A stretch of DNA of 63,244 nt, filler included, from Collodictyon triciliatum (lineage: Eukaryota): NCBI GenBank assembly GCA_043381765.1. It is 5 parts of 5 records of this genome, joined end to end, with 100 filler letters (N's around TTAATTAATTAA, not from the genome) between each part and the next. Parts side by side here need not be neighbours in the genome. Positions count along the whole stretch, not along the records: positions 46,239 to 57,073 come from JBHJMP010001334.1; 4 more parts are not named here. One strand, given 5' to 3'. Below the pieces are notes generated by a model. That model did not search any database, was not told where the DNA came from, and saw only the letters and a program-made list of their open reading frames with translations. The translations under genes and the position numbers were made by a program. Positions 49,295-57,073 of the stretch are shown in pieces. The first letter of the stretch is position 1. The number at the start of each line of letters is the position of its first letter.

Positions 49295-49732
49295 CTCCGC
49301 ATCACCAAAATCTTTCTATTGGTGATACTTTTTGCTAGCCTTTTTTTTTGACCTTGCCCGCAGCCATGTCAAGTTTGCCTGACTTATGTGTGATTCACAT
49401 CTTCTTGATTTTTGGTCCCGAATGGATTTTTTTTTTATCGCTGAAGGTGTTTTTGATGATTTACAATTTTTTTGGAGCAAAAGATTACCCTATATTTCTT
49501 ATGTAACACTCAACAGAATTCATTTTAAATATGTACACGTATGCGCGCATCCATTCATCCATCCATCCATGTTCTTTTATGAATTTTATTCCATTCGGAG
49601 GAGTGGCACAAGAAAAGAGCCAATCAAATGATATTTATTTATTCTATATATATAGAATAAATAAATATCAGTTTATTTCATCCTCAATTGTTTTCTGCGT
49701 TTTTTTACATATTATTATATCTAATTCAATAT

Positions 49733-50920
49733 ATGGATGACGAAATGGATATATTGAACAAGTATTACAATGCACCCAAGCACACCAATTCAGTTGCCGG
49801 ACTCTGGGCGCTCGTAAAAGAATTTGGAATAAAAAAAAAGACTGTCGAGGAATTTCTCAAACAACAGCCCGACTACCAAACTCTGCAAGCAAGAAAGTCA
49901 GAACGCAAACAAGCAACCATGATGCGATTCAAACCAGGGTACATTCAAATAGACACAATTGATGTCGACGGCCTGGAGTCAGAAGACGCAAAATATATCC
50001 TGACTTGTGTTGATGTATTCACGCGAAAGCTGTGGGCCTATCCACTGCTGGCAAATTCCAGCAAAGAAGTTTCAAAGCAATTAGAAAAGTTTATCAAGGA
50101 ATATAAACTAATCACAACCATTCAATCAGACAATGGAAAAGAATTTCAGGGTGAGGTCCCCAAACTTTTAGAAAGTAATAATATCAAGAGTGTGAAAAGT
50201 TCTCCAGGTAATCCAACAACCAACGCCTTTGTCGAAAGAGCCAATGGCACAATCAAGCGCGCACTCTACGGCTATCTGCAAAAGACTGGCAATGACCCAA
50301 TCCCCCATCTCAGAGAATTCACAGACTCTATTAATCTTGTCAAGAATGCAACAACAAATGTTGTGCCTGATGTTGCGGTTCTGCCAAAGTACCAGGAGCA
50401 AATTATCGAGAACCAAAAAAAATATGCAGGCAAAAAGAATCAGAATGCCGGCATGGACAAACCATTCCAACCTGGAGACAAAGTCAGAATACTTCTCGAG
50501 AAGACTGACCTGCCTGTGAATGTAAAACAAAAACTGAAAACTTCAAAGGGGTACTTGCCCCGTTGGAGTAATGAAATATATACAGTCATCAAAGAAAGCA
50601 AACCAACCAGCGAGTGGGCTGTGCCCTATGTCAAAGTCGAATCAACCAATGCCAAGATTGCCAAAACTAATTTCAAGCGCTCTGACTTGCTTCTGATCGA
50701 CGACACAGTCACCAAAGGCAAAACACATAAACCCAAAAAACAACTCGTCAAAGAATTTGCAGAGGAAGACGACTTGAATGAATTTTTAAAAGAAGCACAG
50801 CCTCGAAAAATGAAAGGGGCCTCTGGGTTAGAGGAAAAAGATTTATTCGTCTCTAAGGAGAAGATCGAAAGCCAGAAAAACGCTAGGGCGGCCAGATATG
50901 AGAAGAGACAAAAGAATTAA
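49733..50920 (+). CDS. Retroviral-type (rve, DDE) integrase of Polinton/Maverick type
   Basis: N-terminal ILNKYYNAP...VEEFLKQQPDYQ; catalytic QIDTID, YILTCVDVFTRK, IQSDNGKEF, NAFVERANGTIK; C-terminal FQPGDKVRI...KGYLPRWSNEIYTV. Confidence 0.93.
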   Translation: MDDEMDILNKYYNAPKHTNSVAGLWALVKEFGIKKKTVEEFLKQQPDYQTLQARKSERKQATMMRFKPGYIQIDTIDVDGLESEDAKYILTCVDVFTRKLWAYPLLANSSKEVSKQLEKFIKEYKLITTIQSDNGKEFQGEVPKLLESNNIKSVKSSPGNPTTNAFVERANGTIKRALYGYLQKTGNDPIPHLREFTDSINLVKNATTNVVPDVAVLPKYQEQIIENQKKYAGKKNQNAGMDKPFQPGDKVRILLEKTDLPVNVKQKLKTSKGYLPRWSNEIYTVIKESKPTSEWAVPYVKVESTNAKIAKTNFKRSDLLLIDDTVTKGKTHKPKKQLVKEFAEEDDLNEFLKEAQPRKMKGASGLEEKDLFVSKEKIESQKNARAARYEKRQKN

Positions 50921-51447
50921 ATCTTCTTCTTCGGCCTCCCCCTTTTTTTTTTGGCCGGAGCCTCGGTTTCATTTGAATCCTCCGCCTCCTTCACAGCCTC
51001 CTTGACGGCATCTTTGTTGACGCTTATCTTTTCAGCCTCCTTGATTTCATCCTTGAGTATTTCGGCCTTGCGCTTGCGTACCTCGGTCTTTGTCTCATTG
51101 GCTTTCTCAATTCCCTTTTTCAAAATCTCTTTCGAGTCTTTCTTCGACTTGCAAAAGAAATAAACATCTGATTCGCTAATAGACCACTTGGATTTAAAAT
51201 TGCGCAGCCCAATTACATTTTCCTTTGTGCCGCGAATTTCTTTTTTCTCTTCGTCTGGGGTAAATGTAACATATCCCCCTTTCACCAGCTGCGCCTTTGT
51301 TTCAGAGTCACGCGATTGATATTTGCGGGGCTTGGGAAAATACGAGATGTAATCATTCTTTTGAATGTCCCCGATTTTAACAACCTCCCAAACTTCATCG
51401 AAATCTTTGGGCAACTCCTTTTTAATATTTTCTGGGATTTCCGGCAT
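50917..51447 (-). CDS. Viral hypothetical protein with a C-terminal AT-hook
   Basis: 176-aa intact, Lys/Glu-rich ORF ending KKKRGRPKKKI. Confidence 0.7.
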   Translation of the reverse strand: MPEIPENIKKELPKDFDEVWEVVKIGDIQKNDYISYFPKPRKYQSRDSETKAQLVKGGYVTFTPDEEKKEIRGTKENVIGLRNFKSKWSISESDVYFFCKSKKDSKEILKKGIEKANETKTEVRKRKAEILKDEIKEAEKISVNKDAVKEAVKEAEDSNETEAPAKKKRGRPKKKI

Positions 51448-51622
51448 ACCTATTAATTTATATTATTATTTAAAAACAAACGCATAAAGAATATTGCAGT
51501 GAAACAATATGCTTTATTCAATTTTATATCCAGCTGACAAGGATCAATTGGTTCAACGAGTTCGCAGGCTCAGAGAACTAATGGCATCTATTTACAATAA
51601 ATGAGTGGTGTGCCCCCACCAA

Positions 51623-55565: not shown

Positions 55566-55593
55566 CCAAAGAAAATAATTTCTGGGGTTTAAT

Positions 55594-55670
55594 ATGGAGA
55601 GAGCTTATTACATTCATGTCGATTCAGCAAACAGAGAAAGCGGCAGTATATCAGACTTTAATTTTGCAAC
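55594..55670 (+). CDS. N-terminus of a probable minor capsid (penton) protein, runs into an N gap
   Basis: MERAYYIHVDSANRESGSISDFNF resembles the hxhDSxxR..G..SDF start of Polinton-like/virophage-type minor capsid proteins; only 25 codons visible. Confidence 0.5.
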
Positions 55671-56424
55671 NNNNNNNNNNNNNNNNNNNNNNNNNNNNNN
55701 NNNNNNNNNNNNNNNNNNNNNNNNNNNNNNNNNNNNNNNNNNNNNNNNNNNNNNNNNNNNNNNNNNNNNNNNNNNNNNNNNNNNNNNNNNNNNNNNNNNN
55801 NNNNNNNNNNNNNNNNNNNNNNNNNNNNNNNNNNNNNNNNNNNNNNNNNNNNNNNNNNNNNNNNNNNNNNNNNNNNNNNNNNNNNNNNNNNNNNNNNNNN
55901 NNNNNNNNNNNNNNNNNNNNNNNNNNNNNNNNNNNNNNNNNNNNNNNNNNNNNNNNNNNNNNNNNNNNNNNNNNNNNNNNNNNNNNNNNNNNNNNNNNNN
56001 NNNNNNNNNNNNNNNNNNNNNNNNNNNNNNNNNNNNNNNNNNNNNNNNNNNNNNNNNNNNNNNNNNNNNNNNNNNNNNNNNNNNNNNNNNNNNNNNNNNN
56101 NNNNNNNNNNNNNNNNNNNNNNNNNNNNNNNNNNNNNNNNNNNNNNNNNNNNNNNNNNNNNNNNNNNNNNNNNNNNNNNNNNNNNNNNNNNNNNNNNNNN
56201 NNNNNNNNNNNNNNNNNNNNNNNNNNNNNNNNNNNNNNNNNNNNNNNNNNNNNNNNNNNNNNNNNNNNNNNNNNNNNNNNNNNNNNNNNNNNNNNNNNNN
56301 NNNNNNNNNNNNNNNNNNNNNNNNNNNNNNNNNNNNNNNNNNNNNNNNNNNNNNNNNNNNNNNNNNNNNNNNNNNNNNNNNNNNNNNNNNNNNNNNNNNN
56401 NNNNNNNNNNNNNNNNNNNNNNNN

Positions 56425-57073
56425 CAAGTGGGCTTTATTTACAGTGGCTGCAGGAGACGACGACACCGGCAGAGCTGCCTAGCCAAGCGGGGAACAATGG
56501 ACGTTTTCTGACGACGAACGGGTCAGTGCCGTCGTGGGCTGTAGTGAACCAGGTCCCTACTCCATCAGGGTCTCAACACCTTTTAAACTCAACTGGCGTG
56601 GGTACATACGTATTTACTAACGAACCAACCGTAGATCTTATTCGGTTAGGGTCTGGAAGTAAATGGGGGTTTCGAATACTCAGCAGCAATACAGGATTTT
56701 TGTTCTTCATCAAAATAATACTTTGAGTCTTATAACTGGAAACATCACAAGACAGTCGTGGATTCTAATGGTACTACTCTATCGGTTCGTTGACTTTCTC
56801 CAGCACTACTGGTGTGATACGAAGAACTGATATGTCATTAGCTTTATACGAAGAAGGGTTTACCCGACAAATGTCATTTAATACTGGTTCTAATCCGGCC
56901 ACAAGAAGAAGATTGTTTATAAATGATAATGTATTTACTGTTGAAAATAGCACATTTGTTGTTTCCAACCAATCGGTGATTCATTCAATAGCAGGTCAAT
57001 TAAATTTAAACACAGCAGGATCGGCAGCTGCCCCCTCCCTTTGTTTGGAGACTCGACGTCCCACAGTCAGGTA
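56425..57073 (+). pseudogene. Fibre/spike-like protein fragment with frameshifts
   Basis: LPSQAGNNGRFLTTNGSVPSW (56475-56537) and NTAGSAAAPSL resemble phage tail-fibre motifs; the frame breaks near 56705 and 56780. Confidence 0.55.

Follow-up and report, generated by a model that had tools for sequence, protein, structure and literature searches.

A probable provirus of a Polinton-like virus with an rve integrase and a primase-polymerase/SF3 helicase near the TCTP gene of a Collodictyon triciliatum assembly

The window analysed here, a stretch of 63,244 nucleotides from an assembly of Collodictyon triciliatum, contains an intronless block of viral genes at 49733-57073, which is most likely the left 7.4 kb of a Polinton-like virus (PLV) genome of 16-17 kb, present as a provirus on a chromosome of a eukaryote, probably a protist. 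The TCTP gene is about 2 kb away, and the block is cut by a scaffold end. The block includes the genes of an integrase, p176, a replicase, a packaging ATPase and p117, the start of a penton gene and a fibre fragment (Table 1). The metagenome contigs L003, L004 and L006 agree with the block in gene content and gene order, at 79-84% nucleotide identity (79% for L003 and 84% for L004), and they supply the missing part, namely the remainder of penton and fibre, a low-complexity protein of 1188-1342 aa, a small protein and the major capsid protein.

Table 1. Features of the scaffold carrying the viral block; positions refer to the window, those of the replicase domains to residues.
Feature	Position	Strand	Evidence or remark
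Host TCTP gene, spliced	46921..47862	-	Pfam TCTP E=1.3e-43 on exon ORF 46921-47454
Reverse-transcriptase fragment, retroelement remnant, between TCTP and viral block	48271..48987	+	Pfam RVT_1 E=4.5e-17 on 48331-48987
AT-rich palindrome, 56 nt	49622..49677	.	Arms 49622-49649 and 49650-49677, 93% complementary (repeat search)
Conserved motif (T/A)(G/A)CGTTT(G/A/T)T(T/C)T, candidate promoter element	49696..49706	+	37 nt upstream of integrase ATG
rve-family DD35E integrase, 395 aa, full length	49733..50920	+	Pfam rve E=1.1e-12
p176, 176-aa basic protein	50917..51447	-	Homologues in 5 loci, L003 to L007
Conserved motif, second copy	51474..51484	-	37 nt upstream of p176 ATG
Replicase, 773 aa, AEP primase-polymerase/PriCT/SF3 helicase	51623..53944	-	DUF5906/SF3 helicase E=8.8e-14
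Replicase AEP primase-polymerase domain	residues ~8-195		D95, D97, H131, D156
Replicase PriCT-like helical domain	residues ~220-330
Replicase SF3 helicase	residues ~450-670		Walker A G506/G508/K509/S510, E553/E554, T598/N599/N600, R611/R612
Long intergenic region, replicase-ATPase, with inverted repeat; candidate replication origin	53945..54482	.
A32/FtsK-HerA-type genome-packaging ATPase, 240 aa	54483..55205	-	Pox_A32 E=4.7e-9
p117, small lysine-rich protein, upstream of ATPase	55212..55565	-	Same position in L003 and L006
Putative penton (minor capsid) protein, first 26 codons	55594..55670	+	Rest inside 754-N gap
Assembly gap, 754 N	55671..56424	.	Hides most of penton gene
Fibre gene fragment, broken as assembled, cut by scaffold end	56425..57073	+	tblastn with L003 and L006 fibres
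Artificial linker	57074..57173	.	N44-TTAATTAATTAA-N44; other scaffold beyond

Genomic setting of the viral block

The linker that follows the block was also found at 11434-11533, 30473-30572 and 46139-46238. The window is thus a concatenation of scaffolds, and therefore position 57073 represents the end of a scaffold and not a biological end. The viral scaffold is 10.8 kb long in this draft assembly, and the join between host and virus is known from one draft contig only. The map of N-runs showed a single N-free contig (46239-55670) common to the spliced TCTP gene, the reverse-transcriptase fragment and the PLV genes. The final exon of TCTP lies within its exon ORF, and upstream exons were placed by eye at about 47470-47560 and 47600-47640, their boundaries being approximate. 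A second copy of the reverse-transcriptase fragment was not found in the window, and the fragment is absent from L003, L004 and L006.

The left end of the element was bracketed between 48988 and about 49690. The palindrome in this stretch is located 56 nt upstream of the integrase ATG, and none of the three relatives compared (L003, L004 and L006) covers it or the left-end stretch. Neither terminal inverted repeats nor target-site duplications were visible, the right end lying past the scaffold end, and the other scaffolds of the window contained no sister copy of the block. Across the assembly gap, about 782 bp are expected from L003 (penton remainder 688, spacer 15, fibre start 79), compared with 754 N; the scaffold is therefore colinear with L003 in this region.

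Comparisons with Pfam, PDB and homologues confirmed the intronless block and its genes as given in a preliminary description of this DNA, to which two further conserved ORFs of 176 and 117 aa can be added, and the reported contiguity with the spliced TCTP gene is borne out by the shared N-free contig. The same description regarded the integrase, replicase and ATPase ORFs as unbroken, and all three are of full length. The fibre fragment (56427-57073) is broken as assembled. Over 37 aa it shares 86% identity with the N-terminal block of the L003 fibre, a protein of 804 aa; its frame contains stops at 56724, 56733 and 56766, and the similarity to L003 switches frame near 57040. The gene may have decayed, or the sequence near the end of the scaffold may be poor.

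It may also be supposed that the block is not integrated, the assembler having fused the host contig to a PLV genome that was free or episomal and came from the culture or a contaminating organism. This was judged improbable, even though the virus lies on a scaffold of only 10.8 kb in an assembly strung together with linkers and its ORFs resemble those of a functional virus. The GC content of the viral block (28-46%) differs from that of the TCTP exons (58-65%); however, it declines gradually, with no step, and similarly low values of about 30-38% occur in host non-coding DNA in other parts of the window. Seven public runs from five studies (freshwater or aquaculture metagenomes, or unlabelled) contained 0.39-0.54 of the sampled 31-mers of 46239-55670, a figure which is suggestive only; since the host part makes up just about 36% of this interval, viral words are among those found. 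The single N-free contig spanning TCTP, reverse-transcriptase fragment and virus argues against such a chimera, as do the complete integrase encoded and the frequent occurrence of endogenous PLVs beside retroelements, described in the accessible part of PMC10120064. A provirus close to TCTP was consequently retained as the preferred reading.

Integrase, replicase and packaging genes

The residues D74, D133 and E168 of the integrase are invariant in 14 homologues, with a D-E spacing of 35 residues (alignment A9). Retroviral integrase cores were matched in the PDB (E=1.8e-5), and the 396-aa homologue P0048 is 91% identical. The neighbouring p176 comprises a conserved N-terminal domain of about 110 aa, followed by a basic tail with an AT-hook-like RGRPKK end (alignment A5). 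No significant family was found for it in Pfam or PHROG, and it is probably a DNA-binding protein.

The replicase is 64% identical to its homologue P0001. The four AEP residues listed in Table 1 are invariant in 40 homologues. In a further alignment of the replicase, G506/G508/K509/S510, E553/E554 and T598/N599/N600 are invariant, so that Walker A, Walker B and motif C of an SF3 helicase are present. The best PDB sequence match was obtained for residues 459-666 with the 'Primase' entries 6k9c/6k9e (E=6e-9), which we take to be those of NrS-1. No match to the Pfam Prim-Pol family was found in the window replicase or in the homologues scanned, and the assignment of the N-terminal domain was based on an AlphaFold model (pLDDT 85.5). 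The top 13 Foldseek matches of this model in the PDB were all AEP primase-polymerases, including pRN1 (1.3e-4) and NrS-1 (4.6e-4). VIA comparison of the AEP domain gave Z 10.3 with pRN1 ORF904 (154 aligned, rmsd 3.9), Z 8.5 with NrS-1 N300 (148 aligned, rmsd 3.9) and Z 3.1 with vaccinia D5. The modelled N-terminus is thus a primase-polymerase fold of the pRN1/NrS-1 type, the activity being predicted.

The helical domain following it (residues 221-328) gave Z 7.7 with the PrimPol of ASFV, a value under the level deemed safe for helical domains, and appears closer to this protein than to its pRN1 and NrS-1 counterparts. PriCT_2 reached only E=0.066 in the window replicase, whereas it was found above the cut-off, at the same position, in seven of nine distant homologues; the D5_N and Pox_D5 families are also present in distant homologues. 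The order of an AEP Prim-Pol fold, a helical domain and a C-terminal helicase is shared with pRN1 ORF904 and NrS-1, from which the window replicase differs by an identity of just 10-16%, by belonging to a eukaryotic virus and by an activity that is predicted. The inverted repeat in the intergenic region beyond the replicase was recognized in the ORF list by mirrored peptide strings on both strands and is conserved in L003. The stretch 54094-54193 matches 9062-9161 of L003 at 85%, its orientation being reversed relative to the flanking genes.

The packaging ATPase matched the terminase large subunit family phrog_2666 (3.2e-15), and its family profile matched the STIV B204 packaging NTPase (1.4e-4); S48/G49/K50 of Walker A and D130/D131 of Walker B are invariant. 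The p117 protein is 87% identical to that of L003 and 45% to that of L006. All 26 residues of the penton-like start recur unchanged at the N-terminus of a 254-aa protein of L003, for which no Pfam family was found. The PDB profile match of this protein to 'Penton protein' was non-significant (E=0.73), and the assignment as a putative penton was made from this match together with position and size. The dN/dS values of the integrase (0.24), the replicase (0.22), p176 (0.16 against L004), p117 (0.13) and the ATPase (0.03 against L003) indicate that all five genes evolved under purifying selection (dN/dS 0.03-0.24).

Relatives, capsid protein and comparison with known viruses

The relatives found comprise 9 close replicase clusters and 66 metagenome loci. 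The gene order in the relatives is capsid, small protein, giant low-complexity protein, fibre, penton, p117, ATPase, replicase, p176 and integrase. The capsid gene lies outside the window and is known from these colinear relatives; the contig L006 bears the N-terminus of the capsid protein alongside PLV genes, and 38 full-length homologues were found. One of them, P0039, probably belongs to one genome with P0001 and P0048, each of the three being present on 4 contigs (the longest of 17215 bp). Sequence searches with P0039 gave no Pfam family and no PDB match; DJR-like_dom was found in 2 of 38 capsid relatives, with E=0.012 at best, and Capsid_N in 2 of 98. The structural model of P0039 (pLDDT 91.2, pTM 0.90) had 253 PDB matches at E<=0.001, those to iridovirus, chlorovirus, faustovirus and Sputnik capsid proteins reaching E values down to 5e-15, and its matches in BFVD were viral capsid proteins. 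From this model, the capsid protein of the relatives is confidently predicted to be a double jelly roll.

Giant viruses, too, have a D5-like primase-helicase, an A32 ATPase and a double jelly-roll capsid protein among their core genes, and the block might be regarded as a piece of an inserted member of the Nucleocytoviricota. The likeness of the PriCT-like domain to ASFV PrimPol, the D5 families in distant homologues and the many giant-virus proteins among the best-scoring PDB and BFVD matches of the capsid would agree with such an origin, which was nevertheless considered extremely improbable. The same 10-11 genes make up the contigs of the relatives, which are compact (12.9-17.2 kb), and a direct terminal repeat of 120 bp joins the two ends of a distant one, L055, at a length of 14.7 kb. 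Moreover, the AEP domain resembles those of pRN1 and NrS-1 more closely than vaccinia D5, and an rve integrase is present. A genome of PLV type thus remains the preferred reading.

No pPolB was found in the block, in L003 (12.9 kb) or in L006 (15.3 of 16.4 kb). The scanned ORFs of L003 and L006 contained no Pfam protease family above the cut-off that would represent a maturation protease, a search which divergent proteases could escape; a sub-threshold Peptidase_C15 match occurred in the L006 integrase (E=0.0028, 18.1 bits against a cut-off of 22.7). The preliminary description had proposed a fragment of a capsid-forming virus of PLV type with an NrS-1-like primase-polymerase/PriCT/SF3 replicase and no visible pPolB, and the colinear capsid genes, the fold matches to pRN1 and NrS-1 and the near-complete relatives agree with it on all three points. 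The novelty it implied was not upheld. In the accessible parts of the published work (PMC10120064, PMC7805220, PMC12220804, two 2026 preprints), free and endogenous PLVs pair an rve integrase or a tyrosine recombinase with pPolB or an AEP-SF3 primase-helicase, and swap modules frequently. Because an rve integrase combined with an AEP-SF3 helicase in the absence of pPolB is already in print, the block opens no new category.

As far as the available portions of the reports on such PLVs of protists describe them (PMC10120064, PMC12220804, 10.64898/2026.06.19.733378), the likeness extends to the rve integrase, AEP-SF3 replicase, A32 ATPase, double jelly-roll capsid, small capsid protein and phage-like fibre, to a genome of about 16-17 kb in whose scanned ORFs no maturation protease was found, and to integration near retroelements and mosaic module exchange. 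The latter is represented here by L003 and L004, whose replicases are identical but for which a neighbouring gene is just 45% identical, and this pair shows module exchange between close relatives. The clade of the window element differs from the known PLVs in its low-complexity protein and in p176 and p117, which belong to no family. Polintons/Mavericks (Polintoviricetes) share the rve integrase, the A32 ATPase, the double jelly-roll capsid and the integrated life; the window element and its near-complete relatives differ from them in lacking pPolB, in the cysteine protease, which was not found, and in a replicase that is an AEP-SF3 fusion. Tlr1 of Tetrahymena is also of PLV type, with an rve integrase and, in the available text, without a canonical pPolB (PMC4642659, PMC11161782), but contains a large superfamily 1 helicase protein in place of the AEP-SF3 fusion. 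Mavirus-type virophages are similar as small double jelly-roll viruses with a related capsid fold and rve-mediated integration. According to the part of PMC4642659 available, mavirus has pPolB and a cysteine protease, neither of which was found in the relatives scanned.

Upstream motifs and possible mode of life

The conserved motif occurs at 3 sites in 49600-55670, compared with 0.15 expected from shuffles. In L004 the p176 homologue is preceded by the same motif, again at 37 nt from the ATG, as is the integrase in L006; L003 has it at 31 and 48 nt upstream of the p187 ATG. Two sets of short upstream motifs may define separately regulated classes, with the integrase and p176 in one and the structural genes in the other. 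The DD35E integrase would insert linear viral DNA into the host chromosome and, upon activation, the AEP primase-polymerase/PriCT/SF3-helicase protein would open an origin, for which the conserved inverted repeat separating the replicase and ATPase genes may serve. It would then unwind the DNA, prime it and possibly extend it too, like the enzymes of pRN1 and NrS-1.

A different mode of life, that of a virophage, can be envisaged for the same virus, in which a silent provirus replicates only upon infection by a giant virus and with the transcription and replication machinery of the latter. Short conserved motifs directly upstream of genes, very tight intergenic spacers and the resemblance of the capsid to virophage capsids (Sputnik 1.1e-11; Sissi, Qinghai Lake and mavirus in BFVD) are consistent with it, and some PLVs, e.g. 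PgVV, are described as parasites of giant viruses in the accessible part of PMC11161782. This mode of life is possible but rather unlikely, as a primase-polymerase-helicase is encoded by the virus itself, the window showed no giant-virus sequence, and the scanned ORFs of the relatives contain no protease family apart from the sub-threshold Peptidase_C15.

Queries with the replicase, ATPase, integrase and capsid gave no match for the clade in a viral-contig collection. It is tempting to speculate, although we regard it as doubtful, that the copy in the window belongs with its metagenomic relatives to an unnamed freshwater PLV clade with a fixed gene order, a self-sufficient replicase of the pRN1/NrS-1 type replacing pPolB and its own conserved promoter motif 37 nt upstream of the integrase and p176 genes, and that this clade would be still active as a virus and entering the host genome. 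With this element, the growing catalogue of small DNA viruses colonising protist genomes gains a further endogenous PLV that is well preserved and has close relatives, free-living or metagenomic. Its replicase is a tractable candidate for testing if priming and extension of DNA can be combined in AEP-SF3 fusions of eukaryotic viruses. The window copy and L003 represent a clean case of strong purifying selection, their ATPases being 98% identical at the amino acid level at dS 0.75.

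Scaffold frame and gene content

The N runs, and the sequence around 57074-57173, showed the window to be a pseudomolecule in which at least five scaffolds with no relation to one another are strung together. Neighbourhood across the artificial linkers is therefore meaningless, and the viral block is confined by the linkers on its two sides to one 10.8-kb scaffold, 46239-57073. The right limit of this scaffold is the scaffold end and no biological boundary. One N-free contig takes in the TCTP gene, a reverse-transcriptase (RT) fragment and the viral block up to 55670. The RT fragment, of which no further copy was found within the window, may be what is left of a host retroelement, or may have inserted into the terminal region of the virus. 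No tRNA was found, and no Rfam family was matched in 46239-53900. The scaffold opens with a microsatellite (46239-46400), the translation of which reads (THSL)n or (SLTH)n; an ordinary host gene, a class I/II aminotransferase ORF (Aminotran_1_2, 6.6e-24; GC about 55%), lies at 61380-62702 in the last scaffold.

The viral block is intronless under the standard code. The features named in the preliminary description (TCTP, integrase, replicase, ATPase, penton start and fibre fragment) were all recovered by ORF, Pfam and PHROG analysis, the PHROGs concurring as transposase, DNA primase and terminase large subunit. The integrase aligned with retroviral catalytic cores, its DD35E residues D74, D133 and E168 being invariant in 14 homologues, and its 395 aa are of the same length class as the 396 aa of a relative. 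The family profile of the ATPase matched the STIV B204 packaging NTPase across the full length.

Coordinates of linkers, genes and sequence elements (strand in brackets for motif sites)
Feature	Position	Strand	Match or remark
Artificial linker, N44-TTAATTAATTAA-N44	11434-11533, 30473-30572, 46139-46238, 57074-57173		six-frame stop linker
TCTP, spliced gene, last-exon ORF	46921-47454	-	Pfam TCTP, E=1.3e-43
Reverse-transcriptase fragment, truncated ORF	48271-48987		RVT_1, 4.5e-17; between TCTP and virus
Palindrome, 56 nt	49622-49677		
Integrase	49733-50920	+	rve, 1.1e-12
p176, small conserved protein	50917-51447	-	
Replicase, 773 aa	51623-53944	-	DUF5906, 8.8e-14; PriCT_2, 0.066
ATPase	54483-55205	-	Pox_A32, 4.7e-9
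p117, small conserved protein	55212-55565	-	
Penton candidate, 26 codons	55594-55670	+	up to the gap
Internal gap of scaffold 46239-57073	55671-56424		754 N
Fibre fragment	56427-57073	+	beyond the gap
CGTTT motif (11 nt), window	49696 (+), 51484 (-), 50884 (-)		
CGTTT motif, relatives	L004 2563; L006 12615; L003 11747, 11764		

Relatives, capsid protein and replicase

Nine clusters of close replicase homologues were found at 64-39% identity, and a profile built from them recovered 66 metagenome loci. A viral-contig collection yielded two distant loci with the replicase profile and three with that of the ATPase; it gave no match to single-protein queries with either protein, nor to the integrase and capsid profiles. 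The metagenome loci L003 (12.9 kb) and L004 are 79% and 84% identical to the window in nucleotide sequence. Both L003 and a further locus, L006 (15.3 of 16.4 kb seen), carry the genes of the window in the same order and orientation and extend past it with a penton candidate of 254 and 267 aa, a fibre of 804 and 737 aa, a low-complexity protein of 1342 and 1188 aa and a small protein of 119 and 114 aa, respectively, after which L006 adds the N-terminus of one more protein. The 26 penton-candidate residues of the window are identical to the first 26 of L003, and the distance of about 782 bp that L003 predicts between the two window pieces agrees with the gap of 754 N. The giant proteins at equivalent positions (L003 424-4452, L006 1024-4590) matched no Pfam family; the centre is coiled-coil-like in one and proline/alanine-rich in the other, and by eye the two resemble each other at the C-terminus only. 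No pPolB was present in L003 or in the part of L006 seen, in line with the absence noted in the preliminary description.

For the terminal fragment of L006, 38 homologues of full length were found, each about 510-600 aa long. The capsid homologue P0039, the closest replicase (P0001, 64%) and the closest integrase (P0048, 91%) each occur on four contigs, the longest of 17215 bp, and from this coincidence of contig number and longest contig we infer that the three belong to one genome. The capsid protein was not recognised by sequence-only methods; a protein atlas directed it to double jelly-roll clusters. The AlphaFold model of P0039 (135 sequences; pLDDT 91.2, pTM 0.90) gave 253 structure matches at E<=0.001, with solved double jelly-roll capsid proteins of an iridovirus (5e-15), PBCV-1, faustovirus and Sputnik (1e-11) among them, and it also matched viral capsid proteins in BFVD. 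A jelly-roll capsid gene is thus not lacking among the relatives, as expected of the capsid-forming virus proposed earlier. The capsid profile matched 1745 representative proteins at E<=0.001, of which the stricter cut-off of E<=1e-30 left 23: a small clade within a very large superfamily.

In the replicase, D95, D97, H131 and D156 are invariant across 40 diverse homologues. The 13 best Foldseek matches of the model of residues 1-345 (pLDDT 85.5) were all AEP primase-polymerases, and with VIA-align the model scored Z 10.3 against pRN1 ORF904 and Z 8.5 against NrS-1 N300, but only Z 3.1 against vaccinia D5; residues 221-328 resembled a helical domain of ASFV PrimPol (Z 7.7, VIA-align). PriCT_2 exceeds the Pfam cut-off at the equivalent position in seven of nine distant homologues, and the helicase half matched the PDB 'Primase' entries 6k9c/6k9e (6e-9); NCBIfam gave nothing for the window replicase itself. 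The AEP matches, PriCT_2 and the 6k9c/6k9e match uphold at the level of the fold the NrS-1-like reading, and the replicase is predicted from its model to be an NrS-1-like primase-polymerase.

Gene content, relatives and models agree with the identity given in the preliminary description, an integrated Polinton-like virus (PLV) with such a replicase. The gene pairing, put forward there as unusual, is not new. As of 2015, just one PLV was on record as having an rve integrase (PMC4642659). In later work, endogenous PLVs are said 'often' to pair pPolB or a primase-helicase with a tyrosine recombinase or an rve integrase (PMC10120064), and elements with just one of rve and pPolB are described (PMC7805220). 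Also reported are cryptophyte PLVs with phage-like fibres, AEP-S3H and an rve integrase (PMC12220804), AEP-SF3 and rve across PLV groups (preprint 10.64898/2026.06.19.733378) and AEP-S3H as a common replicase (PMC11161782). The combination of rve integrase and AEP-SF3, which the window PLV carries, is already known, and the supplements to these works may already list the element or its host. A phage-like fibre is not borne out by sequence here, since tblastn of a phage collection with the capsid protein, ATPase and fibre gave no match and the fibre had only a weak match in PHROG (E=0.0016).

Probable integration, preservation and mosaicism

Only two observations form the basis for integration, namely contig continuity and the presence of the integrase. 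The GC content declines gradually from 58-65% in TCTP to 28-46% in the virus, and the left end is only bracketed, because 48988-49732 is covered by no relative. Public runs contained at most 0.54 of the 31-mers that make up 46239-55670; 20 of the 24 rows of 31-mer shares, from 12 studies, included part of this region. Seven runs, from freshwater or aquaculture metagenomes or unlabelled, exceeded the host share of about 0.36. The shares of 0.05-0.07 in six RNA runs are no evidence of expression.

Values of dN/dS against the nearest relatives, at dS 0.4-1.1, were 0.03 for the ATPase, 0.13 for p117, 0.16 for p176, 0.22 for the replicase and 0.24 for the integrase, which indicates purifying selection on these genes during most of their divergence. 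In the assembly the fibre fragment is broken, with in-frame stops at 56724, 56733 and 56766 and a similarity to L003 that switches frame near 57040. These defects may reflect decay, or poor sequence at the scaffold end. An alternative genetic code was rejected as the cause of the fibre stops, because these include both TGA and TAA and because, under the standard code, every other gene in the block is uninterrupted and terminates as in the relatives.

The replicases of L004 and L003 are identical (769/769 aa). The p176 and integrase of L004 are 85% and 94% identical to those of the window, but only 45% and 32% to those of L003. The change from the identical replicase to the dissimilar p176 next to it is the breakpoint of a recent recombination between two viruses that occur together. 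An integrase 86% identical to that of the window (P0049) and a replicase only 39% identical (P0009) have longest contigs of the same length, 4655 bp. Module exchange of this kind is described in a preprint (10.64898/2026.10.13.758929). At its contig end (4186-4321) L004 carries an internal stretch a second time in reversed orientation, and the locus L056 is over its whole 1500 bp its own reverse complement; both are fold-back assembly artefacts. The distant relative L055, with capsid, ATPase and replicase genes and no integrase detected, has an exact direct repeat of 120 bp at its ends (1-120 and 14606-14725); this genome of 14.6 kb is complete and either circular or terminally redundant.

Candidate regulatory sequences

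The motif (T/A)(G/A)CGTTT(G/A/T)T(T/C)T has three sites in 49600-55670 against 0.15 expected and precedes the start codons of the integrase and p176 by 37 nt, with equal spacing in L004 and L006. A degenerate 'late' motif, TTTCT(G/T)(G/T/C)(G/C), occurred 13 times against 2.9 expected and was set aside as too loose for trust. The spacer between replicase and ATPase (53945-54482; L003 8788-9276) contains an inverted repeat conserved in L003, the arm region 54094-54193 being 85% identical to L003 9062-9161 but inverted relative to the genes on either side. This inverted repeat is possibly a replication origin or a small inserted repeat.
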